This document shows positions 3,801 to 31,558 of a DNA stretch of 32,000 bases, piece by piece. The position numbers were made by a program, and so were the translations under genes. The notes under the pieces were generated by a model. The model made no database searches, had not been told where the DNA came from, and worked only from the letters and a program-made list of their open reading frames with translations. Numbering within the stretch: position 1 is the stretch's first letter; each line of letters starts with the position of its first letter. The stretch comes from Planctomycetales bacterium (GTDB lineage Bacteria > 4484-113 > JAFGCY01): the NCBI GenBank assembly GCA_022646745.1, contig CP060262.1, forward strand, positions 3,600,001 through 3,632,000. Direction: 5' to 3'.

Positions 3801-3827
3801 TGTTCACCTCAAAACCCGGCGGCGTGC

Positions 3828-5195
3828 TCAGCCAAGCTCAAGCGATGCGACGATCTGCTTGAAGTGCTCACCGCGCACGTCGAAACCGGGGTACTGGTCG
3901 AAGCTGGCGCAGGCCGGTGACAACAGCAGTGTTCCACCCTCGCCCGCCAGTTGCCGTACACCCTCACGCACGGCCTGTTCGACGTTATCAACCCTCGAGA
4001 TTCCATTATAACCTGCTGCGCGCAGTTCCTGCTCGAATCTGTCAGCGGCTTCGCCATAGACGATGGCATGCTGCGCCTTCTGCTTCAGCAGCTCAACCAT
4101 CGCAGACAGGTCGGTATTCTTGTCACGACCACCGAGGATGATTGCCAGTGGACCCTCCATCGCCCTGAGCGCGATGATCGTGGCCTCTGGATTGGTGGCC
4201 TTGCTATCGTTGTAGAAGCGGATCCCGCCTGCCTCGCGGCAGAGCTCGATGCGGTGTTCATAGCCGTGGAAGCTGGACAGGCGTTCAATGATCGTCTCAG
4301 CCGTGGCCCCGACCGTCAGGCAGGCGAGGATCGCCGCCATTGCATTCTCCACATTATGCAGGCCCGGGATCTGGATGCAGTCGAGCGGGATCTCCGCCCC
4401 TTCGCTGCCAAGGTCGCAGATGATGCGGTCATTGGCAAGCCAGGCCCCGCGCAGTCGGTTGCCTGGGGTGGAGCGGTACTGCAGGAAGTGCAGGTCCGGC
4501 CGGTTGAACACGTCGGGGTGGAACTCCGGGGTCATGGCGTTCGTGATCACGAAGTCCCCTTCCTGCATGTTGTCGACCATGCGCCGCTTGATGCGGGCGT
4601 ACTCCTCCACGGTGCCGTGGCGGTCCAGGTGGTCCGGCGTCAGGTTTGTATAGATCGCGATGCGGGGCGCGAAGGCATCAATCGCCTCAAGCTGGTAGCT
4701 GGACACCTCCAGCGCGACGAACTCATTGGGCTGGATCTCATCGAGGCTGGCCAGCAGCGGGGAACCGATGTTGCCAAGCACATGGCAGGGGCCGAGCGCC
4801 GAGAGGATGTGCCCGAGCATCACGGTGGTGGTGCTCTTGCCGTTGGTGCCGGTGATGCCGATCAGGTAGCCCTCGCAGTAGCGCGAGGCGAACTCCAGCT
4901 CGGAGATCACGTTCACACCCGCTGCCAGCGCTGCCGACACGTTTTCGTTCGTCAATGGCACGCCGGGGCTGACGATCAGGGTGTCCAGCTCCCTGGCCTG
5001 CTTGAGTGCGTCGTCACCCGCCAGCAGGTCATAGCGGTCCTCGGCCTCCGCCTGCAGTCGTGTGAGATCTTCCGCAGTGGTGTTGTCAACAATCACCAGC
5101 GGGCGCACCATACGCGGCGCGAGGTACTCGACGCAGGCCCTGCCCGTCTTGCCGAGTCCGTAGATGCCAACCTTCTGTCCGAGCCAGTCGTTCAA
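3828..5195 (-). CDS. murD: UDP-N-acetylmuramoylalanine--D-glutamate ligase (TTG start)
   Basis: 455 aa. N-terminal GLGKTG Rossmann-like motif, Mur-ligase P-loop GITGTNGKSTT, C-terminal ...LLSPACASFDQY... Sits at the dcw position between mraY and ftsW. Confidence 0.92.
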   Translation of the reverse strand: MNDWLGQKVGIYGLGKTGRACVEYLAPRMVRPLVIVDNTTAEDLTRLQAEAEDRYDLLAGDDALKQARELDTLIVSPGVPLTNENVSAALAAGVNVISELEFASRYCEGYLIGITGTNGKSTTTVMLGHILSALGPCHVLGNIGSPLLASLDEIQPNEFVALEVSSYQLEAIDAFAPRIAIYTNLTPDHLDRHGTVEEYARIKRRMVDNMQEGDFVITNAMTPEFHPDVFNRPDLHFLQYRSTPGNRLRGAWLANDRIICDLGSEGAEIPLDCIQIPGLHNVENAMAAILACLTVGATAETIIERLSSFHGYEHRIELCREAGGIRFYNDSKATNPEATIIALRAMEGPLAIILGGRDKNTDLSAMVELLKQKAQHAIVYGEAADRFEQELRAAGYNGISRVDNVEQAVREGVRQLAGEGGTLLLSPACASFDQYPGFDVRGEHFKQIVASLELG

Positions 5196-5225
5196 TTTCG
5201 TGTCCGGGAATAATGATTGTGGAAA

Positions 5226-6293
5226 TTATGCAACACGCGTGCGGTATCGCAGCACGAGAAAGATGAAAGACATCACAAGCAGTACGCTGCTGGCGATTCC
5301 GGCTATTGGCCCGACCATGAGCCAGAGCCAGGCACTGAGGCAGCCCCAGGCCTGCAGGGCGGCAAACACGTAGACAACGGTGGTTTCCTTCCAGCCCGCC
5401 AGTTCGAAGTGGTGATGGATCGGTGTCATCAGGAAGATGCGTTTGCCACCGGTGCGTTTGAAGTAAACCACCTGCAGCATCACGCTCAGCACCTCCACCA
5501 CCCAGATGAAGGCGAACAGGCCGAGGTAGAGCCACAGACCGCTGAGCAGCGCCAGGCCGGCCACGAATGCACCAATGCAAAGCGAGCCGCTGTCTCCAAT
5601 GTAGATGCTGGCCGGTTTCCAGTTGAAGTTGAGAAAGGCTATCAACAGGCCAATGATCACTGCTGCAGCTAGGATGTCCGTATCTGGCAGCAATTTCATC
5701 GTGCTGAAGATGAACAGCATTGACAACAGGCTGGCAAGCGTTGTAGTCCCAAGTAATCCGTCCAGACCATCCGTGAAGTTGCTGCCATTGATGGCTCCAA
5801 GCCAGATGAACAGGCCGAGCGCGTAGTACAGCCAGTTGGGCAAATCCAGCACGAAACTGACCCCAGTAATGGTTCCATCCATTATCTGAGTCAGCCCAGC
5901 GGCAATGTCAGGCCTGATGTGGAACAGCAACAGAGCGCCGACCAGCAGCATTGCCGGAAACTTGAAGCGCGCCTTCAGCCCTGCGCTGCCACCCAGCACT
6001 TTGGCCCGGTCATCAACGAAACCCAGCAGTCCCATCAGGGCCGCAGCCAGGCAGACCCAGATCATTGGCTGGTCCGCTCCACCGGAAACAAGGAGGAGAG
6101 ATATGCCCAGCATGCCGATCACAAAGACCAGCCCCGCACCGGTTGGCACCCTGCCCTTCTTCAGGTGATGGCTCGGCCCGTCTTCCCGGAAGGCCTGATT
6201 CATGCGCCCACCGACGATTTTCCTGTAGAGCCAGAACAATCCCAGGCCAACAGCCATCGAGCACAGTGCGACCAGGGTCAGGCTGAACGGCAC
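5226..6293 (-). CDS. mraY: phospho-N-acetylmuramoyl-pentapeptide transferase (GTG start)
   Basis: 355-aa polytopic protein with MraY motifs (...GFVDDRAKV..., NGSNFTDGLDGL, ...IFLMTPIHHHFEL...). Confidence 0.92.
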   Translation of the reverse strand: MPFSLTLVALCSMAVGLGLFWLYRKIVGGRMNQAFREDGPSHHLKKGRVPTGAGLVFVIGMLGISLLLVSGGADQPMIWVCLAAALMGLLGFVDDRAKVLGGSAGLKARFKFPAMLLVGALLLFHIRPDIAAGLTQIMDGTITGVSFVLDLPNWLYYALGLFIWLGAINGSNFTDGLDGLLGTTTLASLLSMLFIFSTMKLLPDTDILAAAVIIGLLIAFLNFNWKPASIYIGDSGSLCIGAFVAGLALLSGLWLYLGLFAFIWVVEVLSVMLQVVYFKRTGGKRIFLMTPIHHHFELAGWKETTVVYVFAALQAWGCLSAWLWLMVGPIAGIASSVLLVMSFIFLVLRYRTRVA

Positions 6294-6295
6294 CG

Positions 6296-8017
6296 TCAGA
6301 CCGCCGTGCCGTTGAGCAGGTCGTTGACGACGCGCTCCAGGTGCAGGGCGCGGCTGCCCTTGACCATCACCACCTTGGGCTTGTCATTGCGGTTGATCGC
6401 GCTGAGCAGTAGGGCACTGAGCTTGCTGGCTGCACGGTCGTCGAGGATAACGGTGTCGCCACGCTGGCGCTGCTCGGCCTGCTGGGCCCGGTTGCCAGCA
6501 CGCATCGGAGCGCCGAATTCGCGTGTGCTGCGCTCACCATGCATCGGCGCACCGAAGCTGCGGTCCTCCGGGCGGAAGCCCATCGAAGCCTCCAGTTCGC
6601 TGCGGCCTTCTATGTAGAACAGCTCCACATCATCCAGGCCCTCCACCTCGTTGAAGGCGTTCATGCGCGGCCCGATCGCATACACCTGCTTGAGCGGCAG
6701 GTTGAGCGTTGTCAGCGCGCACTGGCGGTGCAGCAGGGTCTCGTATTTGCCGAGCTCAAGCATGTCACCGATCACGAGGATCTTCTCAAAGCTGTCGTCA
6801 ATATTGAGCAGCAGCTCCAGGCTGTCACGCACGCTGGCCGGTGAGCTGTTGTAGCAGTCGTCAATCAGGAACAGGTCCTGCCCGAGCTGGAACAGGTTCA
6901 GGCGCTGCGGCGCAGGCAGCAGTTCAGGAGCCGCCTCGGCGATGTCGTCGAGAGTCAGGCCAAGCTTCAGTCCCGCAGTGGCAGCGGCGGTCAGGTTCTC
7001 GATTGCACCGCGACCGAGCATATGCAGGTTGACCTCGACCTTGCCTTCCTTCGTGCAGAGCATGAAGCGGCTGCCGTCGATCCCGAGCAGCTTCACGTCC
7101 TCCAGCCAGACATCGGCCTCCGGCAGGTCCAGCGGCAGCTCGAAGTTGTCATTGCGGGTGATGAAGGGCGGGATACCGCTGTTTCGGTAGGCCTCGGAAG
7201 CATCGAAGTACATGATGTCGTACTCATCACGGTTGGCCTTACGGTTGCCGATCTCCTCGAGGATGCCGAACAGGTTCTCATCGCGGCGGTTGAGCACGAC
7301 GGTACCGCCGGGTACCAGGCCGTCAACGATCTCGCCCTTGGCCTTGTAGACCTCCTCGAAGGAACCAAGCCGGCCCACATGGCTGCCCGATGTATTGGTG
7401 ATCATCGCGATGTTGGGATGTGAGATGCGGGAAAGCAGGCTGATCTCACCTCGGGCGCGCATCGCCATCTCCACCACTGTCATTTCGGTATAGGCATTGA
7501 TGCGACTCAGGGCCAGGGGTACGCCGATCTCGTTGTTGAAGTTCTTCTCGGTGCCGACGGTCTGGAAACGCTTGGCCAGCAGCTGGATCAGCATCTCCTT
7601 GGTGCCGGTCTTGCCGACGGAGCCGGTCACGCCGATCACTTTCGTGTCAAACTGGCGGCGGAACCACTCGGCCATCTTCTGCAGCGAGACCAGCGTGTGG
7701 CGCACCTCGATCACGCAGACATCCTCAAACTCGAGGAAACCGCGCTGCACCTGGGAGCGCAGCCAGCTGAGGATTTCGTGGATCTGGTGGTGGCCGGTGC
7801 GCACGAAGCAAGCCACGGCGCCCTTGCCGATGCTGTCGATGATGAACTGGTGCCCGTCGCGGCTCTGGCCCATCAGCGGCACGAACAGCGTGCGGTGGTC
7901 GACATAACGGCTGTCGATGCAGTAGTTGCCGAAGCGGATGTCCGGGTTGCCATGCAGCAGGCGCCCACCGATGGCAGGCAGCAGCTCGCCGATGGCGAAC
8001 GTGGATTCGTTACCCAT
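6296..8017 (-). CDS. murF: UDP-MurNAc-tripeptide--D-alanyl-D-alanine ligase, unusually long (573 aa)
   Basis: Mur-ligase P-loop GVTGSVGKTGTKEM, C-terminal ...VMVKGSRALHLERVV..., and dcw position. It contains an extra low-complexity block near the C-terminus (see findings). Confidence 0.88.
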   Translation of the reverse strand: MGNESTFAIGELLPAIGGRLLHGNPDIRFGNYCIDSRYVDHRTLFVPLMGQSRDGHQFIIDSIGKGAVACFVRTGHHQIHEILSWLRSQVQRGFLEFEDVCVIEVRHTLVSLQKMAEWFRRQFDTKVIGVTGSVGKTGTKEMLIQLLAKRFQTVGTEKNFNNEIGVPLALSRINAYTEMTVVEMAMRARGEISLLSRISHPNIAMITNTSGSHVGRLGSFEEVYKAKGEIVDGLVPGGTVVLNRRDENLFGILEEIGNRKANRDEYDIMYFDASEAYRNSGIPPFITRNDNFELPLDLPEADVWLEDVKLLGIDGSRFMLCTKEGKVEVNLHMLGRGAIENLTAAATAGLKLGLTLDDIAEAAPELLPAPQRLNLFQLGQDLFLIDDCYNSSPASVRDSLELLLNIDDSFEKILVIGDMLELGKYETLLHRQCALTTLNLPLKQVYAIGPRMNAFNEVEGLDDVELFYIEGRSELEASMGFRPEDRSFGAPMHGERSTREFGAPMRAGNRAQQAEQRQRGDTVILDDRAASKLSALLLSAINRNDKPKVVMVKGSRALHLERVVNDLLNGTAV

Positions 8018-8184
8018 TGTCAGTTACCTCAGTATCAACTTTCCCGGGCGGTCCCGGGTCGCTGCCGGAGCGTGCATCCTATGGGACACCGTGTTCCGCC
8101 ACCGTCGAAAGGAAACATAATGAGTGGCGGTCTGGTTGTCCGGCAGGCCATTATTCTAGGACATAATCCGCATTTCACCGCGGA

Positions 8185-9708
8185 TCAGGTAATGCTACCG
8201 CCCTGCCCTGCAAAATACTTCTCCACTTCCTCAGAGTCTGAGAAATGAATCGTCCGGTCGCGCAGGATCTGGTAGTCCTCGTGGCCCTTGCCGGCGATCA
8301 GCACGAAGTCACCCGCACTGGCCTCAGCCAGGGCGCGCTGGATCGCCTCGCGCCGGTCCTCAACCCGCATCCATGGGCCGCCATCGGGGTCCAGCCCGGC
8401 CAGGATCTCGTCGATGATCGCGGATGGGTCCTCAGTGCGCGGGTTGTCGCTGGTGAAGATGGACAGGCCGCTGCCCTGCTGGGCGATGCGTCCCATCTGC
8501 GGGCGCTTGCTGCGGTCCCGGTCCCCGCCACAGCCGACCACGGTAATCAGTCGATTTCCCTGCGGCACGAGACGGCCCAGTGCACTGACCACGTTGTCCA
8601 CCGCGTCCGGGGTGTGGGCATAATCCACATATACATTTATCCCAGCCGGGTTCGGCACGCGCTGCAGGCGGCCGGGCACGTTGCTGAAGGCCGCCAGTGC
8701 ATCCTTCACCTGGGACAATTCGAGACTTTCCAGCAGGGCCACGCCCACGGCGGCGGTGCAGTTGAAGACCTGGAAGTCTCCCGCCAGGCTGCAGGAAAGG
8801 CAGGCCATGTTCGAATCCTCAGCGAGGCTTGCGGGCCAGATGCCGTTCTTGAGCACCAGTTTCCAGCGCACCCCGCTGGCATCCGCCTGCGGTTCCGAGA
8901 TCACCAGGTTGCTGGCACGTTCGGTGCCGTACTTAAGCAGCAGGCCGTCAAAGCGCGAGGCATATGAACGGCCTGTTTCATCGTCAAGGTTGATCACTGC
9001 ATAGCCGCCCTGTGGGGCAAGGTAGTCCTTGAACAGGATTTCCTTGGCCGCGGCGTAGTCCTGCATGCTGCCATGGTAGTCAAAGTGGTCCTGGCTGAGG
9101 TTGGTGAACACACCGCCGGCGAAGCGGATGCCGGCCACGCGCTGCTGCTGCAGGGCATGGCTGGAGACCTCCATCACGAGGTGCGTAGCTCCTTCCCGCA
9201 CAAGGTTGGCAAGCATCTGCTGGATGTCAGCAGCATCGGGAGTCGTCAGCGAACCGCTGAGGAACTCCGCAGCACCGGGCCGCAGCAGGCCGAGAGTGCC
9301 AAGTACCGCGGCGCGGCGGCCGGCTGAGTTGAGCAGGTGGCCGAGCAGCAGGGCGGTCGATGTCTTGCCGTTCGTGCCCGTGATGCCGATCACGCGCAGC
9401 TTTTCACTCGGGTTGCCGAACATGCGAGCATTCAGCAGCGCGTAGGCCCTGCGGCTGTCGCTGACGCGCACGAAGGAACCTGTTGCATCAGGGTCCAGCG
9501 GCGCACTCTGCACTACCACCGAAGCGCCTGCAGCCAGGGCCTGCGCGATGAAGCGGTGCCCGTCATATTGCGTGCCGGGGATGGCAACGAACACGCTGCC
9601 GGGGACCACCTTCCTGCTGTCGCTGACGACACGGTCAACTTCCATGTCGCCAAACAGGTTCATGTGGTCCAGGGAGTCCATTCCCTCCAGCAGGTCATCA
9701 AGTCTCAT
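8185..9708 (-). CDS. murE: UDP-MurNAc-L-Ala-D-Glu--2,6-diaminopimelate ligase
   Basis: I place the start at internal Met 27 (MRLDDLLEG...). P-loop GITGTNGKTST. The DNPR motif (FTSDNPRTEDP) is characteristic of meso-DAP-adding MurE. Overlaps the ftsI stop by 11 nt. Confidence 0.9.
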   Translation of the reverse strand: MRLDDLLEGMDSLDHMNLFGDMEVDRVVSDSRKVVPGSVFVAIPGTQYDGHRFIAQALAAGASVVVQSAPLDPDATGSFVRVSDSRRAYALLNARMFGNPSEKLRVIGITGTNGKTSTALLLGHLLNSAGRRAAVLGTLGLLRPGAAEFLSGSLTTPDAADIQQMLANLVREGATHLVMEVSSHALQQQRVAGIRFAGGVFTNLSQDHFDYHGSMQDYAAAKEILFKDYLAPQGGYAVINLDDETGRSYASRFDGLLLKYGTERASNLVISEPQADASGVRWKLVLKNGIWPASLAEDSNMACLSCSLAGDFQVFNCTAAVGVALLESLELSQVKDALAAFSNVPGRLQRVPNPAGINVYVDYAHTPDAVDNVVSALGRLVPQGNRLITVVGCGGDRDRSKRPQMGRIAQQGSGLSIFTSDNPRTEDPSAIIDEILAGLDPDGGPWMRVEDRREAIQRALAEASAGDFVLIAGKGHEDYQILRDRTIHFSDSEEVEKYFAGQGGSIT

Positions 9709-11578
9709 TAGGCACCTCTGCTCTCTCTCCGAATGCCAGGTAGCTGATCCGGTCCGTGATCCGCGAGAAGACGGGGGCGGCCACACTGCCGCCGTAGTAG
9801 ACCCCCCTGCGGGGGTGGGAATACATCACAACGATCACATACTGCGGGTCCTTAACCGGGAAGTAGCCGGCGAAGCTCGCCAGGTAGGCATGCTCCTCGT
9901 AACCCTTCCCGTCCTTGCCGGCGATCTGGCCGGTGCCGGTCTTGCCGGCGGGCAGGAAGCGCGGGTTACCACTCTTCAGGTCGCGCTTGCTGGCAAGGGA
10001 CTTCATGTAGCGTTCCGGGATGGCCTTCTTGCCGGTACCCTCCACCACCACGTTGCGCAGCCATTCCTGGGCACGGCGGCAGCCCTGCTCACTGAGCACC
10101 CGGCGCTGTCCACTGTCCAGGTCGAACACGCGTTCATTGCCGTTGTCAACCAGCAGCATGCCGGTCTCGCCATCGACAGCCGTGTCCTCCAGCTCAAGCT
10201 TGAGGGTCGGATGGACCTCATAGCCGCCATTGGCAATCACGCAGTAGGCCGCGGCCAGCTGAAGCGGTGTCATGGAGAAACCCTGGCCGAAGCCGGAGTT
10301 GGCGAGCGAGACCGTCGGCCACTTGATCTCCTCGTCCTGCCAGCTGTTGGGACGGCGGCCAGATGACTCCATCGGCAGCTCCACCCCGGTGCGGCTGAAC
10401 AGGCCGTATGAGCGGTAGGCCTCGAGCACCTGCTCCTGGCCGAGCTTCATGGCGATGCGTGCCATGCCGACATTGCTGCTTTCACGGATGATGTCGGCAA
10501 CCGGCACACCGGAGGAGTCGCCAATGTAGTGCGTGGCCTCGGCCTCGGTGATCCAGTAGCGGCCGATGTTGATCTTCTGGTTGCAGATGAAGCGCTGGCT
10601 ATCCGAGATCCAGCCGCGGTCCACGGCATAGGCCGCCAGCAGCGGCTTGGCTGTGCTGCCGGGCTCTACGAGGAAATGCACCGCCGGGTTCTGCTGGTCG
10701 ATCAGGTTGCCCTGCTCATCAAACAGCTTTCCGGCGACGAAGTTGTTTGGGTCAAAGTCCGGCGCGCTGCTCATGGCCAGCACCTGGCCGGTGTGCGGCT
10801 CCATCACGATCGCCACGCCCCAGTCCGGGTTGTGCTGCTCCATGCCGGCGGCCAGCTCCTCCTCGCAGATCAGCTGGATCGCGGGGTCAAGCGTGGTGCG
10901 CAGGCTGCGGCCTGGCACCTCCTCGGCTACGGTCTGCATTGATCCCGGCAGGCGGTTCTGTGAGCCGTCACGCATGAACTCCCGGCGGCCGGGGATGCCG
11001 CGCAGCTCATTGTGCCAGGCAGCTTCCAGTCCGAGCTGGTGCTCGCGGCTGCTGGAGTAGAACCCGACCGTGGCCGGTGCGCCGTTGTCAGAGCAGGGGT
11101 AATAGCGCTCAAGGTAGTAGAGCGTGGTCACTCCACGGAAGCTGCGGTCGTCGATCTCACGGGCGGAAGCGGCAGGCAGGCCGCGCAGGATCTCGAGCCC
11201 GCGGCTGTCGGATGCGAGCATCCGGCGGCGGATCTCCAGGTCGTTGCCACCGTTGTATTCGGACAGCATACGCACGATGCCATCGATGGCCTCGTCACCG
11301 CCCTCCCGGATCAGCTTCATGTCCAGCACAACGCGTGTCAGGCGGCGGGTGGTTGCCAGCACGCTGCCGTCACGGTAGAGGATGTCTCCACGCCGCCCCT
11401 CGGGGTTCTCCGTGCCCTCCCAGCGGGAATGCACGGCCTTGCTGTAGTAGGCGGTGACCTGCGGGTCGTTCTGCAGAAAATAAATGTGGGCTGCCAGATA
11501 GGCAGCCCCGAGGAGGAAGGCGGAGAAAAATATCCTGTTGTAGACACGCTGGAGCTTGTGCCAACGGTGTTCGTTCAT
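9698..11578 (-). CDS. ftsI: penicillin-binding protein 3-type transpeptidase
   Basis: Class B PBP motifs: SxxK (GSTAKP), SxN (SSNVG), KTG (AGKTGTG). One N-terminal TM. I prefer the ATG at 11578 (MNEHRW...), which has GGAG 7 nt upstream, over the TTG at 11593 used by the ORF track. Confidence 0.88.
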   Translation of the reverse strand: MNEHRWHKLQRVYNRIFFSAFLLGAAYLAAHIYFLQNDPQVTAYYSKAVHSRWEGTENPEGRRGDILYRDGSVLATTRRLTRVVLDMKLIREGGDEAIDGIVRMLSEYNGGNDLEIRRRMLASDSRGLEILRGLPAASAREIDDRSFRGVTTLYYLERYYPCSDNGAPATVGFYSSSREHQLGLEAAWHNELRGIPGRREFMRDGSQNRLPGSMQTVAEEVPGRSLRTTLDPAIQLICEEELAAGMEQHNPDWGVAIVMEPHTGQVLAMSSAPDFDPNNFVAGKLFDEQGNLIDQQNPAVHFLVEPGSTAKPLLAAYAVDRGWISDSQRFICNQKINIGRYWITEAEATHYIGDSSGVPVADIIRESSNVGMARIAMKLGQEQVLEAYRSYGLFSRTGVELPMESSGRRPNSWQDEEIKWPTVSLANSGFGQGFSMTPLQLAAAYCVIANGGYEVHPTLKLELEDTAVDGETGMLLVDNGNERVFDLDSGQRRVLSEQGCRRAQEWLRNVVVEGTGKKAIPERYMKSLASKRDLKSGNPRFLPAGKTGTGQIAGKDGKGYEEHAYLASFAGYFPVKDPQYVIVVMYSHPRRGVYYGGSVAAPVFSRITDRISYLAFGERAEVPNET

Positions 11579-22731: not shown

Positions 22732-22772
22732 TACACATTTGTATTTTCCACGTTATACTATACACATGTATG
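22732..22772 (+). promoter_or_regulatory. Putative dinB promoter with two operator-like sites
   Basis: -35-like TACACA (22732-22737), 16-nt spacer, -10-like TATACT (22754-22759). Near-palindromes TACACATTTGTA (22732-22743) and TACACATGTATG (22761-22772). The same layout occurs upstream of dnaE2. Confidence 0.45.
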
Positions 22773-22792
22773 GACAAGCGGAAAGAATCATC

Positions 22793-24178
22793 ATGCTGGC
22801 GGACATGGACTGCTTCTTCGTTGAGGTGGAGCGCCTGCACCGGCCGGAGCTGCGTGGCCAGGCCGTGATCATCGGCGGGCAGCCGCACCGGCGCGGCGTG
22901 GTCTCCGCCTGCAGCTATGAGGCACGGCGCTTCGGGGTGCACAGCGCGATGCCGATGGGCGAGGCCTACCGCCGGCTGGGGCTGGACCCCTCCCATCCGC
23001 TGGCCGAGGGGCAGACCATCGAGCGCCGCGGCGTGACGGTCAACTTCCTGCACAGCGGGCTGCATGGCAACTATGGGCTGTACAGCCGCCGCGTGCAGGA
23101 CGTGGTCTCGTCGCTTGTGCCGGTGTTCCGGCCGAAGAGCGTGGACGAGTTCGAGATGGACATCACCGGCTGCGAGACCATCTTCCGGCGCGACTACGGC
23201 GGGATCGTCGAATTCGCCGAGGAGCTGCGCCGCCGGGTGAGAAGCGAGGTCGGCCTGCCGATGTCAATCGGGATCGGCCCCGGGCGGCTCGTCGCCAAGA
23301 TGGCCAGCCGCCACGCCAAGCCCGACGGGGTGTTCCGTGTGCTGCCGCAGGAGGCCGTGTCCTTCCTCGCCCCGCATGATGTGCAGGACGTGCCGGGGAT
23401 CGGCCCGGCCACGGCGGGCACACTGCGCGACATGGGGATCAACCGCGTCGGCCAGCTGCTCCAGCAGGACCAGGCGCTGCTGCGCCAGACCTTCGGGATC
23501 GGGATGTGGAGCCTCGTCAATACGCTGAAGCACGGCGAGGACCGCGCGGTGCCGCCGCCCAACACCGGCGGCGGGATGAGCGAGCATGGCTCGATGGGGC
23601 TGCTGATGCGCGAGGACGGGCATGAGTCGCCGGCGATCGGCTTCGGCCCGGCGCGCGGCAAGCCGAAGAGCATTGGGCATTCGGTGACGCTGGAGCGCGA
23701 CACGCTGGATACGGCGCTGATCAGGCGCACGCTGTGGCGCCTGACGGAGGATGCCTGCCGGCGGCTGCGGGAGAAGGACCTGGCGGCCGGGCATGTTACT
23801 GTCACGATCCGCTACAGCGACTTCCAGACCATCAGCCACGGCGTGATGCTGAATGAACCGACGGACCTCGACCGCGTGGTCTATGAGACGGCGCTGCGAC
23901 TGTTTGACGAGGCGCGCACGCGCCGCCTGCGCATCCGCCTGCTGGGGGTGCGCCTCGAGAAGCTCAAGCCCGGCCTGAGCCAGCTCAGCCTGTTCGAACC
24001 GAAGAGCGTGACGCGTGAGCGCCAACTGACGCATACGCTGGATGCCCTGCGCGAGAAGCACGGCCGCGACGTGGTGCTGCTCGGCCCGGGGGTGAACCAG
24101 ATCGGCAGCGAGCGCATCAGCACGGATAGCCAGGCCGGCGTGTCAGTGAGCATGAGCCCGCAGCGGAGTGCGGTGTAG
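22793..24178 (+). CDS. dinB: DNA polymerase IV (Y-family translesion polymerase)
   Basis: I place the start at Met 19 of the ORF (MLADMDCFFVEVE..., the canonical catalytic DMDxFF motif), with GGAAAGAA upstream. Also SACSYEARRFGV, SIGIGPGRLVAKMAS, VQDVPGIGPATAGTL. 461 aa, longer than typical because of a linker insertion. Confidence 0.9.
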   Translation: MLADMDCFFVEVERLHRPELRGQAVIIGGQPHRRGVVSACSYEARRFGVHSAMPMGEAYRRLGLDPSHPLAEGQTIERRGVTVNFLHSGLHGNYGLYSRRVQDVVSSLVPVFRPKSVDEFEMDITGCETIFRRDYGGIVEFAEELRRRVRSEVGLPMSIGIGPGRLVAKMASRHAKPDGVFRVLPQEAVSFLAPHDVQDVPGIGPATAGTLRDMGINRVGQLLQQDQALLRQTFGIGMWSLVNTLKHGEDRAVPPPNTGGGMSEHGSMGLLMREDGHESPAIGFGPARGKPKSIGHSVTLERDTLDTALIRRTLWRLTEDACRRLREKDLAAGHVTVTIRYSDFQTISHGVMLNEPTDLDRVVYETALRLFDEARTRRLRIRLLGVRLEKLKPGLSQLSLFEPKSVTRERQLTHTLDALREKHGRDVVLLGPGVNQIGSERISTDSQAGVSVSMSPQRSAV

Positions 24179-24190
24179 GGGCGGGGCACT

Positions 24191-24308
24191 GGAGGTCATT
24201 CCCATGGAATGACAGGTTTGCAAGCCCATGGCTTGCAGCAGGCCAGATGTGAAGGGAATGTGCCAATCCATGGCACTGGCCTCCTGCCAGACCGTGGGTC
24301 TGGCCTCC
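24191..24308 (+). repeat. 118-bp nested-palindrome (MITE/REP-like) element, copy 1
   Basis: Four 19-nt hairpins (8-bp stem, 3-nt loop): GTCATTCC-CAT-GGAATGAC (24195-24213), TGCAAGCC-CAT-GGCTTGCA (24219-24237), a degenerate GCCAATCC-ATG-GCACTGGC (24262-24280), and GCCAGACC-GTG-GGTCTGGC (24286-24304). The ends GGAGGTCA... and ...GGCCTCC are inverted. Confidence 0.8.
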
Positions 24309-24333
24309 CCCCTCCCCCGGTTACAATCCATCC

Positions 24334-25416
24334 ATGAACATCCCAAACGGCATCTGCATCGCGGCGCTCTGCTGCCTGCTTGGTTGCGGCGGTGGCTCCA
24401 GCCCCGATCCCGGCAGCAATGGAAATGGCAACGGTAACGGTAATGGCAATGGAAACCAGCCGCCCGCCGGGACGCAGGTCAGCAACAGCCGCCTGCGCAG
24501 TGTGACGGACTGGGTCTACTGGATCCAGGATCCGGATCTCACGGCGCTCGCCGCCGGCGACAGCCAGCTCGTGGTTATTGACTATTCCCAGGACGGCACG
24601 CAGGACACGGCCTTCAGCCCAGCGCAGATCAGCGCGCTCCAGGCCGGCGGGCGGCTCGTGGTCTGCTATCTGAGCATCGGCGAGGCCGAGGACTACCGCT
24701 TCTACTGGGGCCAGCAGGACGGCAGCACGGGGGCGGACTGGGGCAGTGACCCGCCCGCCTGGCTGGGGCCGACCAACCCGGACTGGGCCGGCAACTACAA
24801 GGTGCGCTACTGGGACCCCGGGTGGCAGCAGCTGATCATTGCCAATCCCGGCGGGCATCCCGTGCTGGGGGACGCCCCAAGCTACCTCGACCGGATCATC
24901 GATGCCGGCTTCGACGGGGTCTTCCTCGACATCGTGGACGGCTTCGAGTACTGGGGTCCGGCGGAGGACGGCGGCATTGGACAGCGTGCGCAGGCTGCCT
25001 CTGACATGGCGGACTTCCTCGCGGCGCTGGCAGCGCATGCCCGCAGCCGGGACGCAGACTTCATCATCTGCCAGCAGAACGGCGAGGCCCTGATCAGCGA
25101 TGAGCTGGCCCAGCCACTGGACAGCTCACGGCGCCAGGCTGTGCTTTCGGCGGTGGACTGGCTCAGCGTGGAGGACGTGTTCTACCAGGGCGAGCTGGAT
25201 GCCAACAATCCGCTGGATCCTGACAACTACCGCATCGGCCTGATCGATGCCTACCGCAACGCGGGTGAGTTCGTGAGCATCATCGACTACTTCGATGCCG
25301 CTGAACCTGGCTACAGTGCGGCAGCCGAGGCGGACTTCCTGAACCGCAGCAAGGCCCGCGGCTGGCTGCCCTATGCGGGAGTACGGGCGCTTGACCGCCT
25401 GGGCAGCGGCGGCTGA
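24334..25416 (+). CDS. GH114-like (TM1410/endo-alpha-1,4-polygalactosaminidase-type TIM-barrel) putative glycoside hydrolase lipoprotein
   Basis: 360 aa. Lipobox MNIPNGICIAALCCLLGC|GG followed by a (GN)n linker. The motifs ...VVCYLSIGEAEDYRFYW..., ...YKVRYWDPGWQ..., ...GFDGVFLDIVD... fit my recollection of the GH114/TM1410 family. Confidence 0.7.
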   Translation: MNIPNGICIAALCCLLGCGGGSSPDPGSNGNGNGNGNGNGNQPPAGTQVSNSRLRSVTDWVYWIQDPDLTALAAGDSQLVVIDYSQDGTQDTAFSPAQISALQAGGRLVVCYLSIGEAEDYRFYWGQQDGSTGADWGSDPPAWLGPTNPDWAGNYKVRYWDPGWQQLIIANPGGHPVLGDAPSYLDRIIDAGFDGVFLDIVDGFEYWGPAEDGGIGQRAQAASDMADFLAALAAHARSRDADFIICQQNGEALISDELAQPLDSSRRQAVLSAVDWLSVEDVFYQGELDANNPLDPDNYRIGLIDAYRNAGEFVSIIDYFDAAEPGYSAAAEADFLNRSKARGWLPYAGVRALDRLGSGG

Positions 25417-25426
25417 GGGGAGGCCC

Positions 25427-25544
25427 GGAGGTCATTCCCATGGAATGACAGGCCTGCAAGCCCATGGCTTGCACTTTGAAGTGATTCTGTCCGCGTTGCC
25501 AATCCATGGGATTGGCCTCCTGTCAGGCCATGGGCCTGACCTCC
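25427..25544 (+). repeat. 118-bp nested-palindrome (MITE/REP-like) element, copy 2
   Basis: Same four-hairpin layout: GTCATTCC-CAT-GGAATGAC, TGCAAGCC-CAT-GGCTTGCA, GCCAATCC-ATG-GGATTGGC, GTCAGGCC-ATG-GGCCTGAC. The 26-nt terminal inverted repeats GGAGGTCATTCCCATGGAATGACAGG and CCTGTCAGGCCATGGGCCTGACCTCC match at 22/26 when one is reverse-complemented. Confidence 0.85.
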
Positions 25545-25630
25545 CGCATACCACGTCATTCAGCGCGACCCGGATGCGCTGATGCGCAGCTGCAGCGCTA
25601 GACCGCCGAGTGCTTGCATGAGGCGGCGAA

Positions 25631-28600
25631 TCACACCGGTGCATAGCTCGCGGGCTTGCTGCCCTTGCGGCGGCCGCCCTCGGCATCGTCGGCAACGAGG
25701 CGGTCCAGCTCATCGAGGCGCAGGAGCTTCAGCTCCTGGATTGACAATGTGCAGGTGCCGAACTGCTCCTCCACCTTGCCGGTGATCAAAAACGGCCCGG
25801 TGTAGCGCGTGAGCGGGGCGTAGCGGGCGTACTTGTCAGCGCGCAGGGTGCATTCGAAGGTGCCGGTCAGGTCCTCCATGCTCATGAACTTCATCGAGTT
25901 GCCGGGCCCGATGAATCCTCCCATCGTATGCGAGTCCGTCCCGCGGTTGCGGGACGGTGAGGTACCAGGGACCTGGGACCCGGGACCGGAAGAGGTTTCG
26001 GGTTTCGGGTTTCGGGTTTCGGTACCCGTAGCGGCGGCTTCCAGCCGCCGTCCGGCAGTTGCCGGTAGTGAGTTGTCAGTTTCAGCAAATCCATGGGATT
26101 GGCCTCCTGTCAGGCCATGGGCCTGACCTCCTACTCCCTCCTGACTCTTGCCAGTTCCCCGTTCCCCGTTCCCTGTTCCATCCCCGCGGCCCACGGCCCA
26201 GTCGTCGGTCATGCCGCCGCGCCTGACCAGGCCGAGGTCGGCCGCTGTGTCATTCAGCTCGTAGTCCTCGTCGCCACCGATGCCGCTCACGCTCAGTTCA
26301 TCCTCGTCGGCGGTGTACTGCTCCGGGTCATCATGGTTGGCAGCCTGCAGCTCGATCATGTCCTGCACCTGCCGGCGGCGCGAGAGGTCGACGCGCTTGG
26401 TGGCGATGCACCAGCCGAGCATCCGCACCCAGCGCCCGGCGTAGCGCGGCATCTCGCGGGCGTCGACAAGCCCGCTGACGAGGTTGGCATACAGGCTCAG
26501 GGGGTGGCGGCGCACCAGCATGCCGTAATGCTTCAGCTCGAGCGCGCAGAGCTTCAGCTCGTCGTAGTCATCGAGCCGTCCGGCCATGCGGCGGCGGAAC
26601 TCCTCAAGGCGAGCCGTCTCGTCGAATGGCAACTGGGAGGTTACTGGTTGCTGGTTGCTGGTTGCTGGTACTCCGGCAGCCGGCCCGTTTGACATCCCCA
26701 CCCGTGGATCTCCTTCGTCGATCCCCTCCCGGGATGTCCGGCTGCCAGGATAGGGATCAGAGATGCGGGATGCGGGATGAGCATTCCTGACACGCTCATT
26801 GCTCATTGCTCCCTGCTCATTGCCGGAGGAGTAATTGTCAGCTTCAGGGCTGACCTCCGTTCCATGGTCCCCGATCCCCGGTCCCCGGTCCCTGACCCGT
26901 CGCTTCGGCGTCGAATGCCGCAGTCCCGCTTTCCTCTCCTGCTGGGCCAGCCAGAGCAGCTCCGGGCGGCTCATGCCGAGGCTGTCCAGCGCCCCGGCCA
27001 GAACCAGCAGGTCGAGCTCCGACTCCGAGGGCCCGCAGCGGCGGATGAAGTCCGGCAGGCTGCGGAAGGGGCCATGCCCGCGGGCGGAAACGATGCGCTC
27101 GGTGATGGCAATCGGCAGGCCCTTGATGACTACGAGGGGCAGACGGATTGAGGAGCTTGGAGGTTGGAGTGTGGAGGTTGGAGCAGATGAGGGACCAGGG
27201 ACCCGGGACCCGGGACCAGAAGAGATTGGAGCTTGGAGGTTTGAGGTTGCAGTAGCGGCGGCTTCCAGCCGCCGGCTGGAGGGATGAGCAGTCCCGCCAC
27301 GCTCCTTGCTCATTGCTGCCTGCTCATTGCTCTGTGTCCTCTGTGCCTCTGTGGTTGACAATATGTGTTGTGCGGCTTGCACCGCACCTCCATCCTGGTC
27401 CCCGGTCCCCGATCCCTGATCCCTGTTGTCAGCCTCACGGCTGGGCTCCGCTGCCAATCCATGGGATTGGCCTCCTGTCAGGCCACGGGCCTGACCTCCT
27501 TCTCCCATCCCACATCCCCCATCCCGCATCCCGCATTCCGCACTGTAGTTCAGCCCCGAATGGTTGACATCCGGTGGCAGGATCGACAGGCCGAGTCGCT
27601 CGCATTCACTGATGTAGGCCCGCGCGCCGTAGAAGCCGCCGCCGTTGTCAAGCACCGCCGCCATGAACTGCGCCGGGTAGTGCGCCTTCAGCCAGGCCAC
27701 CTGGTAGCTCAGCGTGGCGAAGCTCGCCGAATGCGCCTTGCAGAAGCTGTAGCCGCTGAAGCTCGCCAGCTGCCGCCAGATCTCCAGCGCACTCGCCGTA
27801 TCCATCCCGCGCGCCTCGCAGCCGCTGACGAACTTCTCGCCCAGCGCCAGCATGCCGTCATGACGGTGCGGCTTGCTCATCACGCGGCGCATCAGGTCGG
27901 CATCGCTGCGTGACAACCCGGCCAGCTCATGCGCCACGCGGATCACATCCTCCTGGTAGATCATCACCCCATGCGTCTCCGGCAGCAGCTCCAGCATGCG
28001 CGGATGCGTGCGCAGCTCATGACGCGCCCCGTTCACACGGCGGATGTACTCCTGCATCATCCCGCTCTCCGCCACGCCAGGGCGGATCACGCTGGATGCC
28101 GCCGTCAGGCCGAGGAAGTCGCGCACGCCCAGCCGCTTCAGCAGCTGGCGCATGGCCGGGCTTTCGATGTAGAAGCAGCCCATCGTTTCGCCATGCCTGA
28201 CGAGCGCGTTCGTGGCCGGGTCCTGCGAGACCTGCTCGTGGTCCGTCAGGTCCGGCTTCAGGCCCTGTTCCCTGAGCGTTGCCAGGGTGTCCTCCAGCAC
28301 GCCGAGGCTGCGGTTGCCCAAGAGGTCGATCTTGATCAGCCCGACGGCCTCCACCGGGTGCATGTCGTACTGCGTGACGACGAAGCCCTTGGCGGCGCGC
28401 TGCAGACCGGTGAAGTAGTCCACATGGTTCGGCGCGATCACGATCCCGCCGCAGTGGATGCCGAGGTGCCGTGGCCGTCCGGCGAGCCGCGTTGCCAGCG
28501 GCAGCACGTGGCAGTATGGTTCGCTGTGCAGGTCCACGCCGCGCATCTCCGGGAAGTCGCGCACCACGCTGTCCAGCCCCGAGGCGCGGATGTTCGGCAG

Positions 28601-29908
28601 GAAGCGGCTGATGGTGCTGATCTCGCGGTCGCCGAGGCCATAGACCTTGGCAACCTCGCGCAGGGCCGAGCGTGCGCGGAAGGTCACGTGCGTGCTGATC
28701 ATGGCGACACGCTCATGGCCCCAGCGGTCGTAGACGTACTGCACGATCTCATCGCGCCGCCGCCAGTTGAAGTCGATGTCGATGTCCGGCGGGCTCTTGC
28801 GCGCCGGGTTGAGGAAGCGCTCGAAGTACATGTCGTAGCGGATCGGATCCACCGGTGTGAGGCCCAAAAGCCAGCTCACGAGCGAGTTGGCGGCCGAACC
28901 GCGCCCGAGGCAGGGGATGCGGCGGCGGCGGGACTCGCGCACGATGTCGTACACAGCGAGGAAGTAGCTGGTGTAGCCCAGCCGGTCGATCGCACCGAGC
29001 TCCATCTCGAGGCGCGCGAGGTACTCCTCCGTGGGGTGGCCGAACTTCAGGTCCAGGCTGCGGCGGCACAGGCCATGCAGCGCACGCGCCGGGTCGCCAC
29101 CGCCGGGCAGTTCGTAATGCGGGAACAGCCACTTGCCGTACTCGAACTCCACGTTCGTGGCCATTGCCAGCTTGCGGGCGTTGTCAAGCGCCTGCGGGCA
29201 GTCGTAGTAGTAGCCGCCCAGTTCCGTCGGTGCGCCGAGGTAGTGCCAGTTGCGGCGCACGCCGCGCGCAGTGTCCATCCCGCTGTTCTGCCCGATCGCG
29301 CGCAGCACGTGGTGCACCGGCTGGTCCTGCGGTCGCAGGAAGTGCACGTCGGTGCAGGCCACCGGGTGCAGCTTCAGCTCGCGGGCCAGCTTGAGCTGGC
29401 GGATCTGGCGCGCGCGCAGCTGCTCGCCGTAGTCCGGGGAGCAGCGCATGAACACGCGGTTGGGGCCAAGGCGCTTGAGCAGGATGCGCAGCAGCTCGTC
29501 GCGGTCACTGATGATCCAGCAGTGCTCGGTGTTGCCAAGCAGGGCGCGGGCCAGGTTGAACTGCGGGTCAAGCTGCCTGAGCGTGGCCAGCCGGCACAGC
29601 TCGCCGTAGCCGTCACGGTCGCGCGCGATCACCAGTGCGGCGGAGGCAGTCGGATCGGCGATGCCGGCCTCCAGCGAACGCCGCCCGGCCTGGGCCTTCA
29701 GTTCCTGCGGGTCGGTGAGGCTGATGCCGAGGACGGGGTGGATGCCGCACTTCAGGGCTGCGCGGTGGAAATGCAGCAGGCCATAGCAGCCGTCGGTATC
29801 GGCGATGCCGAAGGCCTCGAAGCCCAGCTCCGCCGCCTGCACGCAGAGATCCTCGGGGGCGCTGACCCCGTCATGGAAGCTGTACCAGCTGTGCGCGTCG
29901 AGATGCAC
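25631..29908 (-). CDS. dnaE2: DnaE2-type (error-prone, ImuC-like) DNA polymerase III alpha-subunit homologue with three in-frame insertions
   Basis: 1425 aa, GTG start. N-terminal PHP domain (HLDAHSWYSFHDGVS...IADTDGCYG), palm/fingers motifs (...PDIDIDFNWRRRDEI..., ...HCGGIVIAP..., ...GLIKIDLLGNRSL..., ...FCKAHSASFA...), and a C-terminal OB-fold region (...MKFMSMEDLTGTFECTL...). Removing the ~390 inserted codons leaves ~1035 aa, within the size range I recall for DnaE2. Confidence 0.85.
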   Translation of the reverse strand: MHLDAHSWYSFHDGVSAPEDLCVQAAELGFEAFGIADTDGCYGLLHFHRAALKCGIHPVLGISLTDPQELKAQAGRRSLEAGIADPTASAALVIARDRDGYGELCRLATLRQLDPQFNLARALLGNTEHCWIISDRDELLRILLKRLGPNRVFMRCSPDYGEQLRARQIRQLKLARELKLHPVACTDVHFLRPQDQPVHHVLRAIGQNSGMDTARGVRRNWHYLGAPTELGGYYYDCPQALDNARKLAMATNVEFEYGKWLFPHYELPGGGDPARALHGLCRRSLDLKFGHPTEEYLARLEMELGAIDRLGYTSYFLAVYDIVRESRRRRIPCLGRGSAANSLVSWLLGLTPVDPIRYDMYFERFLNPARKSPPDIDIDFNWRRRDEIVQYVYDRWGHERVAMISTHVTFRARSALREVAKVYGLGDREISTISRFLPNIRASGLDSVVRDFPEMRGVDLHSEPYCHVLPLATRLAGRPRHLGIHCGGIVIAPNHVDYFTGLQRAAKGFVVTQYDMHPVEAVGLIKIDLLGNRSLGVLEDTLATLREQGLKPDLTDHEQVSQDPATNALVRHGETMGCFYIESPAMRQLLKRLGVRDFLGLTAASSVIRPGVAESGMMQEYIRRVNGARHELRTHPRMLELLPETHGVMIYQEDVIRVAHELAGLSRSDADLMRRVMSKPHRHDGMLALGEKFVSGCEARGMDTASALEIWRQLASFSGYSFCKAHSASFATLSYQVAWLKAHYPAQFMAAVLDNGGGFYGARAYISECERLGLSILPPDVNHSGLNYSAECGMRDGGCGMGEGGQARGLTGGQSHGLAAEPSREADNRDQGSGTGDQDGGAVQAAQHILSTTEAQRTQSNEQAAMSKERGGTAHPSSRRLEAAATATSNLQAPISSGPGSRVPGPSSAPTSTLQPPSSSIRLPLVVIKGLPIAITERIVSARGHGPFRSLPDFIRRCGPSESELDLLVLAGALDSLGMSRPELLWLAQQERKAGLRHSTPKRRVRDRGPGIGDHGTEVSPEADNYSSGNEQGAMSNERVRNAHPASRISDPYPGSRTSREGIDEGDPRVGMSNGPAAGVPATSNQQPVTSQLPFDETARLEEFRRRMAGRLDDYDELKLCALELKHYGMLVRRHPLSLYANLVSGLVDAREMPRYAGRWVRMLGWCIATKRVDLSRRRQVQDMIELQAANHDDPEQYTADEDELSVSGIGGDEDYELNDTAADLGLVRRGGMTDDWAVGRGDGTGNGERGTGKSQEGVGGQAHGLTGGQSHGFAETDNSLPATAGRRLEAAATGTETRNPKPETSSGPGSQVPGTSPSRNRGTDSHTMGGFIGPGNSMKFMSMEDLTGTFECTLRADKYARYAPLTRYTGPFLITGKVEEQFGTCTLSIQELKLLRLDELDRLVADDAEGGRRKGSKPASYAPV
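25900..26390. repeat. dnaE2 in-frame insertion 3 (inside the OB-fold loop); modular repeats at 25935-26179
   Basis: Modules in order: hairpin CCGTCCCGC-GGTT-GCGGGACGG; GGGACC tract 25966-25989; (GGGTTTC)4 25994-26022; 23-nt GTAGCGGCGGCTTCCAGCCGCCG 26028-26050; half-element (hairpins C+D) 26085-26131; (GTTCCCC)3 26154-26179. Boundaries are approximate. Confidence 0.75.
26635..26925. repeat. dnaE2 in-frame insertion 2 (linker before the OB fold)
   Basis: Modules in order: (GGTTGCT)n 26639-26668; long hairpin GGCAGCCGG...CCGGCTGCC; (GATGCGG)n 26762-26782; 51-nt module 26774-26824; hairpin GTCAGC-TTCAGG-GCTGAC flanked by GGAGG/CCTCC; (GGTCCCC)n 26867-26898. Boundaries are approximate. Confidence 0.75.
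27149..27540. repeat. dnaE2 in-frame insertion 1 (between ...DVNHSGLNYSAE and IRLPLVVIKGL...)
   Basis: Modules in order: GGAGNTTGGAGGTT tracts 27152-27184 and 27226-27250; GGGACC tract 27191-27218; 23-nt GTAGCGGCGGCTTCCAGCCGCCG 27252-27274; 51-nt module 27281-27331; CTCTGTG repeats; hairpin GTGCGG-CTTGCA-CCGCAC; inverted GGTCCCC tract 27397-27425; half-element 27453-27499; CATCCC tract 27506-27540. Confidence 0.8.

Positions 29909-30106: not shown

Positions 30107-31558
<1,452 letters not shown>

Follow-up and report, generated by a model that had tools for sequence, protein, structure and literature searches.

The stretch of DNA analysed here, referred to below as the window, comprises 32,000 nucleotides (nt) of contig CP060262.1 of a Planctomycetales bacterium. 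It contains a gene for a DNA polymerase III alpha-family protein, best named DnaE2/ImuC-like, into which three blocks of short DNA repeats are inserted in frame. The open reading frame (ORF) of this gene spans 25631-29908 on the minus strand, encodes 1425 amino acids (aa) and, according to its translation, runs uninterrupted through insertions 1, 2 and 3. It passes the TIGR00594 threshold, and its Pfam domains are PHP, DNA_pol3_alpha, finger and HHH_6. The NCBIfam models NF004225 and NF004226 score 576 bits and 625 bits, respectively, both below their cut-offs, and the models for DnaE1 and DnaE2 do not separate on this protein. We prefer the name DnaE2/ImuC-like because an imuB-like Y-family gene lies directly 5′ of dnaE2 in two more distant relatives (L131 and L132). 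In the window itself, a DinB-like gene is located 1.5 kb from the polymerase ORF on the opposite strand. Without the inserts, the polymerase core has a length of ~1050 aa, and ordinary relatives measure 1000-1070 aa. The core is under purifying selection (dN/dS 0.06-0.16).

All three insertions are read on the minus strand. Insertion 1 is located at 27149-27535 (aa 792-920), with its repeat tract continuing to 27542. Insertion 2, at 26633-26917 (aa 998-1092), occupies the linker after the helix-hairpin-helix (HhH) domain, and insertion 3, at 25919-26197 (aa 1238-1330), was placed by protein alignment in a loop of the C-terminal oligonucleotide/oligosaccharide-binding (OB)-like domain. The insertion points in the protein follow DVNHSGLNYSAE, QQERKAGLR and TDDW. 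Alignment to the E. coli Pol III alpha subunit (4jom) puts site 1 in the interval from the fingers domain to the HhH motif (E. coli 822-837), site 2 past the HhH domain and site 3 in the C-terminal OB-like region. Extra sequence is present at the same three sites in five orthologues (71-100% identity), where it differs in length and content. In an AlphaFold2 model of residues 701-1425, computed from a 43-sequence alignment, the domains reach a predicted local distance difference test (pLDDT) score of 88-98, and all three inserts are predicted as coil with a pLDDT below 50. An earlier note on this DNA, made from the sequence alone, had compared the blocks of insertions 3 and 1 but had missed that all blocks lie in frame inside an ORF of the opposite strand.

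To this frame the inserts adhere strictly. A stop codon is absent from the frame in use in all 18 inserts of the six genomes compared (5160 nt in total), and the other five frames contain 27-65 each. Five genomes were tested by shuffling their inserts: the probability that all three sites were free of stops was 0.008 in L007 and ≤2e-4 in each of the other four. The absence of in-frame stops compared to the shuffled sequences indicates that the inserts are kept readable, from which we infer that they are translated. The features by which in-frame palindromic insertions are recognized are seen here as well: the ORF is unbroken, the frame is constant and the positions are linkers predicted to be tolerated by the fold. 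A split gene with intergenic spacers was also considered and is ruled out, since no insert breaks the frame or contains a stop. The sequence and the Pfam and Rfam results gave no sign of an intein, an intron or a CRISPR, no search having been aimed at these. An Rfam scan of positions 24000-28000 at E-values up to 1 returned no family. A protein-database search for other genes with these modules, made with the peptide of insertion 3, gave no match even to the host protein, a blank that is probably due to composition filtering and carries no weight. Further low-complexity insertions were seen in the PHP region and the thumb/fingers of the homologues P0006-P0009 (alignment columns 76-190, 690-760). 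Their presence in such distant homologues suggests that colonisation of the polymerase is old and widespread in the clade.

The repeat block of insertion 3 extends from 25958 to 26190 and adjoins an older palindrome, CCGTCCCGC-GGTT-GCGGGACGG (25936-25957), which encodes SPSRNRGTD, has a DNA folding energy of -13.1 kcal/mol (z -6.0) and is found in all five orthologues in the protein alignment. On the plus strand, the block opens with a G-rich heptamer array, (AGGGACC)4 (25960-25987), identified with a period of 7 by Tandem Repeats Finder (TRF), as were the other numbered arrays given here. AAGAG (25990-25994) comes next, followed by a (GGTTTCG)4.1 array with 100% matches (25994-26022) and by the first copy of a 23-mer (26028-26050) that is antisense to the gene and read as RRLEAAAT. 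A 46-nt double hairpin unit on the minus strand, sense to the gene and read as GGQAHGLTGGQSHG, occupies 26086-26131. TACTCC at 26132 and a C-rich array, (GTTCCCC)3.7 (26154-26179), close the block; this array mirrors, in inverted orientation, the G-rich arrays at the opposite end.

The block of insertion 1 (27149-27542) is built from the same parts. Its (AGGGACC)4.3 array (27190-27219, plus strand) is surrounded by a heptamer array of the GGAGGTT type (27152-27183 and 27222-27249), and AAGAG follows at ~27221-27225. The second, identical copy of the 23-mer (27252-27274, plus strand) comes next, then a series of extra modules that have no counterpart in insertion 3 (27281-27450), the second intragenic copy of the double hairpin unit (27453-27499, minus strand), TTCTCC at 27500 and a C-rich (CATCCCG)5.3 array (27506-27542, plus strand). 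The extra modules comprise a block that is common to insertions 1 and 2 at 90% identity (27281-27330), a (GCTCATT)n tract, 8-mers (27330-27353), a hairpin (27370-27391), a (GGTCCCC/GATCCCT)n tract (27394-27425) and another hairpin (~27426-27450). Insertion 2 carries heptamer arrays at 26639-26669, 26762-26779, 26794-26823 and 26866-26892, a 63-nt palindrome (26681-26743) and a hairpin (26837-26858). Compared by blastn, insertions 1 and 3 share three collinear segments, on one strand and in one frame, with lengths of 51, 23 and 37 nt and identities of 96%, 100% and 92%, respectively.

The earlier note had proposed that insertions 3 and 1 share one ordered set of modules, and we found all of its items at the positions given, in the same order and orientation. 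As it had stated, the two insertions differ in the heptamer tract between AAGAG and the 23-mer, with (GGTTTCG)4.1 in one and GGAGCTT/GGAGGTT-type units in the other, and again in their closing C-rich tracts. Its TTGTCAG-containing spacer is present in both insertions; however, this spacer measures 37 nt in insertion 3 and ~180 nt in insertion 1, where it takes up at least five extra modules.

The 23-mer, GTAGCGGCGGCTTCCAGCCGCCG, consists of a 5′ GTAG and a GC-rich hairpin with an 8-bp stem and a 3-nt loop (DNA fold -11 kcal/mol, z -5), which is the structural plan, GT(A/G)G plus a short GC-rich hairpin, of repetitive extragenic palindromic (REP) elements. The two copies are exact, as had been claimed. 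No further copy with up to three mismatches was found in the window, where none is expected (100 shuffles). Outside this genome, the 23-mer is present in at least 120 unrelated metagenome contigs from soils, lakes and hot springs. The GC content of these contigs spans 0.45-0.68, which is unusually wide for one REP. An inverted partner lies within 80 nt of 45 of the 138 copies among the matches listed, the arrangement known as a REPIN, a doublet of inverted REPs; the window holds two singlets, both of them intragenic. In L027, a Y1_Tnp gene (3779-4740; PF01797, IS200-like) of the type of REP-associated tyrosine transposases (RAYTs) is flanked by an exact 23-mer and several inverted copies, and RAYT homologues adjoin the 23-mer in L075, L045 and L022. 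These data identify the 23-mer as a REP whose family is widespread and associated with RAYTs. Among the matches listed, no metagenomic copy adjoins the hairpin pair, AAGAG or a GGGACC tract, and only two of these loci have a heptamer array nearby. On metagenome contigs, the 23-mer was also seen in frame within two other genes. In a radical-SAM gene (L057:2-847), the 23-mer forms an inverted doublet, 'RSGGFQPPTTNRRLEAAAT', right after CxxxCxxC, and on an unrelated contig it lies inside a GH3-family gene (L015:383-1753). The polymerase is therefore not the only gene that tolerates the REP in frame.

The hairpin pair is a discrete unit of 46 nt, GCCAATCC...CTGACCTCC, with the minus-strand sequence GGAG-GTCAGGCC-CAT-GGCCTGAC-A-GGAG-GCCAATCC-CAT-GGATTTGC. 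Eight copies align perfectly within the unit, and similarity ends at its edges except in copies that belong to the same larger composite; four intergenic copies have unrelated flanks. In the window, exact 27-nt matches to the hairpin pair lie at 26090, 27458 and 25503, with none expected by chance, and the last of these is intergenic. A single hairpin of this family spans ~23 nt: GGAG is followed by a 7-8 bp stem, whose two arms enclose a short loop, and by a final A. Covariation in the stem was observed directly: with a search pattern that did not require pairing, the variable dinucleotides were complementary in 27 of 28 matches, representing five variants, which indicates that the stem of the GGAG hairpins is maintained. 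Intergenic copies of the GGAG hairpin usually stand directly after stop codons. In the ~150 kb of related sequence that we surveyed, all module copies outside the polymerase gene are intergenic.

Two such intergenic mosaics lie downstream of the polymerase gene in the window. The first (25427-25545) is located between convergent genes and contains a GGAG hairpin on the plus strand (25427-25449), 11 nt past the stop of a GH114-like gene, a further hairpin (25457-25471) and a copy of the double hairpin unit on the minus strand (25498-25544), 87 nt past the dnaE2 stop. A most likely spurious ORF of 93 aa (25432-25713, minus strand), for which Pfam gave no match, overlaps both this mosaic and the 3′ end of dnaE2. 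The second mosaic (24191-24308) belongs to the same hairpin family, with one hairpin on the plus strand (24191-24213) and two on the minus strand (24260-24308). It lies in the spacer between the DinB-like and GH114-like genes (24179-24333), and its plus- and minus-strand GGAG hairpins form facing halves there too, between genes that are co-oriented. The inverted arrangement thus appears to be a property of the element and not of convergent transcription.

The heptamer arrays are concentrated in the polymerase gene. According to TRF, 13 of the 14 period-7 arrays of the window lie inside the polymerase ORF, between 25960 and 27542, with 2.6-5.3 copies each. Most of them are G-rich on one strand, with units that include GGGACCN, GGGTTTC, GGGGAAC, GGGATGC and GGGGACC, at ~4 copies each. 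They share the tandem units of the G-rich heptameric simple sequence repeat (SSR) or short tandemly repeated repetitive (STRR) sequences, but not the mainly intergenic location of that class; intergenic heptamer arrays do exist in related loci. G-rich arrays at one end of a block face C-rich arrays at the other, and in the RNA fold of insertion 3 these two ends pair around the hairpins (z -3.8). GGG runs spaced 4 nt apart were seen on the template strand in (GGGACCN)4(GGGTTTC)4 (25960-26022, plus strand) and on the mRNA strand in (GGGGAAC)3-4 (26154-26190, minus strand). By their sequence, these runs would fit the G-quadruplex motif that has been discussed for the heptamers of Xanthomonas. Relative L131 has in-frame heptamer arrays together with GTAG-type REP hairpins in both its imuB-like gene (3862-5607) and its dnaE2 (5856-10100), and some of these hairpins form inverted pairs between complementary arrays, such as (ACAGGGA)5 ... 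(CTGTTCC)4. The other genes of this 16-kb contig have neither heptamer arrays nor GTAG-type hairpins.

Comparison of strains revealed a rapid turnover of the inserts. The core (first 2.4 kb) of the sister strain L128 is 95.4% identical to that of the strain studied here, and L004 is near-identical to the latter. Between this strain and L128, insertion 2 is identical at 285 of 285 positions and insertion 3 at 97%; insertion 1 can be aligned only in part, with 74% identity there and 195 gap columns. This difference between strains so closely related agrees with the idea of the earlier note that the region evolves rapidly. A partial third strain, L130, has the start of insertion 1 in common with this strain and then diverges. 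The identity of insertion 2 was observed although the flanking coding sequence differs by 2-5% (dS 0.17), which suggests either recent recombination between strains or a strong constraint at the nucleotide level.

Insertion 1 of this strain and that of L128 share a backbone of two hairpins, 8-mers and heptamers. Interleaved with this L128-homologous sequence, three patches of insertion 1 match the strain's own insertion 3. Patch A consists of the 5′ heptamers and the 46-nt unit. Patch B is the REP with the loop found in insertion 3; the REP of L128 has a different loop. In patch C, a 26-nt GGTCCC array replaces a 26-nt CTGACCA array of L128 between identical flanks; CTCTTC belongs to this GGTCCC/GGGACC patch as well. 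Consistent with the proposal that the repeat tracts are replaceable slots, this is one clean cassette swap; however, any module, and not the heptamer tracts alone, can differ between strains. Overall, modules common to different sites and lineages are 92-98% identical at the nucleotide level, with a host dS of ~0.5 and third positions that are ~70% identical.

Additional evidence comes from the related assembly L129. Its insertions 1 and 3 share ~200 nt at ~99% identity. At its site 2, it carries, at ~88% identity and including a compensatory change in one stem, a ~170-nt composite that is known from insertion 3 of this strain and has the order 46-nt unit, spacer, REP, (GAAACCC)n, CTCTTCC, (GGTCCCN)n. 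L129 is a noisy assembly, of which we used only the intact downstream ORF, with caution. At L129:6445-7830, it shows a frameshift at insertion 1 and a degenerate, indel-ridden partial duplicate of the next 1.3 kb. A natural disrupted allele with a 1.5-kb insertion was considered here and dropped, as the sequence proved on inspection to be the same gene in a noisy copy with partial duplication. Probably, the shared modules led to an assembly error at this interruption; a real rearrangement is possible.

Based on these data, we consider it the best explanation, with a probability of roughly 70%, that three in-frame mosaics of small repeats of a non-coding type have colonised flexible linkers of a DnaE2-like gene and that insertions 1 and 3, as paralogous mosaics of common repeat families, have been exchanging sequence. 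The building blocks would be the RAYT-associated REP, GGAG hairpins of ~23 nt including the fixed 46-nt pair, and heptamer arrays of ~4 copies in inverted pairs. The mosaics would be translated as disordered loops, and selection would purge only variants that break the frame or contain a stop. Modules could be gained, lost and exchanged quickly by insertion beside existing repeats and by recombination between repeat-bearing sites. In the lineage of this strain, the patches of insertion 1 would have come to match insertion 3, and the sequence between them, including the heptamer tract that had been described as swapped, would be the older backbone of insertion 1. The patches may stem from patchy ectopic gene conversion or template switching, or from repeated insertion of the modules that are currently active; the mechanism by which sequence would be copied between the insertions is proposed from the pattern of matches.

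Several points weigh against this explanation. Translation of the inserts would follow from the conservation of their frame only. The association of the 23-mer with RAYT genes was seen only in contigs of other organisms, and an involvement of a RAYT in the present genome is presumed by extension. A GCAAAT mutation that predates the split of the strains is present in insertion 3 but missing from the double hairpin of insertion 1. The present insertion 3 therefore cannot simply have served as the template for this patch; the data agree better with an origin of the 46-nt unit from a consensus copy, for example that located 87 nt past the gene stop. The change between this strain and L128 is unpolarised, and a tract resembling GGTCCC occupies the corresponding position in P0002. 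Finally, the strongest similarity within a genome is found in L129, an assembly of low quality that has the frameshift and the degenerate duplicate described above.

The alternative that stays closest to the earlier note is a single composite mobile element, a scaffold of ~200 nt at both sites whose internal heptamer slots have been replaced or evolve fast. A collinear composite of ~170 nt is indeed present at site 3 in this strain, in L128 and in L004, and recurs at site 2 of L129; its inverted G-rich and C-rich end arrays resemble terminal inverted repeats, the block folds as one long stem, and the same architecture is found in L131 and partly in an intergenic copy of L001. The mobile scaffold is supported to this extent, and module order is kept in other copies of the composite. 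However, the order is not kept for the individual modules, as the 46-nt unit and the REP also occur separately elsewhere and parts of the composite stand apart with unrelated flanks. The ~150 kb surveyed contained no complete composite outside dnaE2, and no target-site duplication was seen beside the composite. A miniature inverted-repeat transposable element would be recognized by defined ends, target-site duplications and multiple full-length copies; the composite has ends that resemble terminal inverted repeats, but the other marks were not seen and it recurs solely within dnaE2. In addition, insertion 1 matches insertion 3 in three patches that are separated by L128-homologous sequence. 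This three-patch pattern points to patchy copying or separate insertions rather than to a single scaffold with dedicated slots, and we regard the composite element as unlikely.

Alternatively, the inserts could be selected features of the protein, disordered linkers or interaction motifs, with the nucleotide repeats as a by-product. The strictly maintained reading frame would be expected in this case, and the inserts persist at the three sites across lineages with a dS of ~0.5. In addition, modules found at different sites are read in the same frame in 53 cases and in a different frame in 19; the latter are mostly heptamer arrays, and non-heptamer modules are nearly always in the same frame. 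On the other hand, identical module types are present untranslated in intergenic DNA, compensatory changes in paired stem positions alter the encoded peptide, the content of the inserts differs between strains that are 95% identical, and the predicted structure of the inserts is a featureless coil. A selected protein feature seems distinctly improbable to us.

Two further ideas concern a regulation of mutability. The mutasome genes might be selected hosts in which arrays and recombining hairpins make dnaE2, and in relatives imuB, hypervariable or phase-variable; we consider this very unlikely. A related idea, to which we give even less credence, is that the heptamer arrays, whose unit length of 7 is not a multiple of 3, form a contingency locus in which slippage would switch the error-prone polymerase on and off. 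It is in line with the presence of 13 heptamer arrays in a single ORF, with one related assembly, L129, in which the frame of the gene is lost where insertion 1 begins, and with L131, in which the imuB-like gene and dnaE2 both have arrays and the neighbouring genes have none. However, the arrays are short (~4 units) and imperfect. Frame-shifting polymorphism in repeat number, the hallmark of SSR contingency loci, was not seen among this strain, L128 and L004: insertions 2 and 3 do not vary in unit number between them, and insertion 3 shows substitutions only. All assemblies besides L129 are in frame, and L129 is visibly misassembled or noisy. Lastly, repeat-rich regions are prone to misassembly, as in L129, but an assembly artefact or a dead gene (pseudogene) is hardly credible in the present case, since the identical protein UNM08082.1 is encoded on a 4.11-Mb contig, independent European Nucleotide Archive (ENA) and NCBI assemblies agree, L004 is near-identical, dN/dS is 0.06-0.16 and in-frame stops are lacking.

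In the window, the polymerase gene is flanked by a tyrosine phenol-lyase/tryptophanase gene (30107-31354, minus strand) and by the GH114-like gene, beyond which lies the DinB/Pol IV-like Y-family polymerase gene (22739-24178, plus strand). Synteny is kept in the orthologous loci L005-L007, with a beta-eliminating lyase gene upstream and a convergent GH114-like gene downstream. In L132, a gene between the imuB-like gene and dnaE2 (2551-2922) gave Pfam matches to bAvd and 23S_rRNA_IVP. bAvd is a family of accessory proteins of diversity-generating retroelements (DGRs).

The repeats of the polymerase gene combine several known classes. REPs are by definition extragenic. The bacterial interspersed mosaic elements (BIMEs) of E. 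coli are mosaics of palindromic units with short conserved linkers, and the mosaics described here recall them. With REPs and REPINs, the 23-mer shares the 5′ GTAG, the GC-rich hairpin, the dispersed occurrence, the inverted doublets and the position beside RAYT genes. It differs in that the two singlets of the window are intragenic, in frame and antisense, and are combined with GGAG hairpins and heptamer arrays. REPINs, their proximity to RAYT genes and insertion beside existing REPINs have been described (PMC3116915). Heptamer repeats of Xanthomonas (GGGAATC) and Nostoc (GGGGAYT) consist of GGGANTN units, mostly in four copies, and form 70-75 convergent pairs; they lie ~28 nt past the upstream ORF, are 89-93% intergenic and 7-11% intragenic, and vary between close species (PMC4692102). 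The present arrays resemble them in their G-rich units, in the ~4 copies and in the convergent inverted pairs; however, they are intragenic and in frame, mix many types of heptamer and flank REP-type hairpins. In their short hairpins nested in heptamer arrays, the mosaics also resemble a class known from Nostocaceae, the small dispersed repeats (Elhai et al. 2008). These are reportedly hairpins of 21-27 nt that show compensatory changes, often lie within tandem heptamer arrays and are nested in each other; an intragenic in-frame location is said to be no feature of them, and lineage and sequences differ from those of the present repeats.

For in-frame location, the closest likeness is to the Rickettsia palindromic elements (RPEs). 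These are found in frame within protein-coding genes, in a fixed frame and at positions thought to be tolerated by the fold (PMC10969869). We compared the two by description, both being palindromic repeats in frame, and the Rfam scan of the region had yielded no family. Each RPE stands alone as an element of ~150 bp, and such elements are distributed over many genes, whereas here short modules are piled up as hypervariable mosaics. Unlike the RPEs, these mosaics occupy three sites of one gene and, in relative L131, the imuB-like gene as well. What is new compared to REP/BIME sequences, heptamer arrays and in-frame elements of the Rickettsia type is their combination into in-frame, hypervariable piles within one gene.

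REPs and heptamer arrays have been regarded as strictly extragenic; here they accumulate in frame in a conserved polymerase gene, are presumably translated and vary between strains whose core is 95% identical. As a natural system, the locus lends itself to the study of how DNA repeats, selfish or structural, become part of proteins in the form of disordered loops, and an identical REP is common to very diverse environmental bacteria. For annotation, it matters that long 'DnaE' proteins and contig breaks in metagenome-assembled genomes of this kind reflect repeat mosaics and not new domains. If the restriction to mutasome genes holds genome-wide, the question arises why those genes are the hosts. 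Should the mutasome genes indeed be selected hosts, populations would carry an error-prone polymerase in on, off or altered states, and this would amount to a repeat-driven mutability switch in an uncultured phylum.

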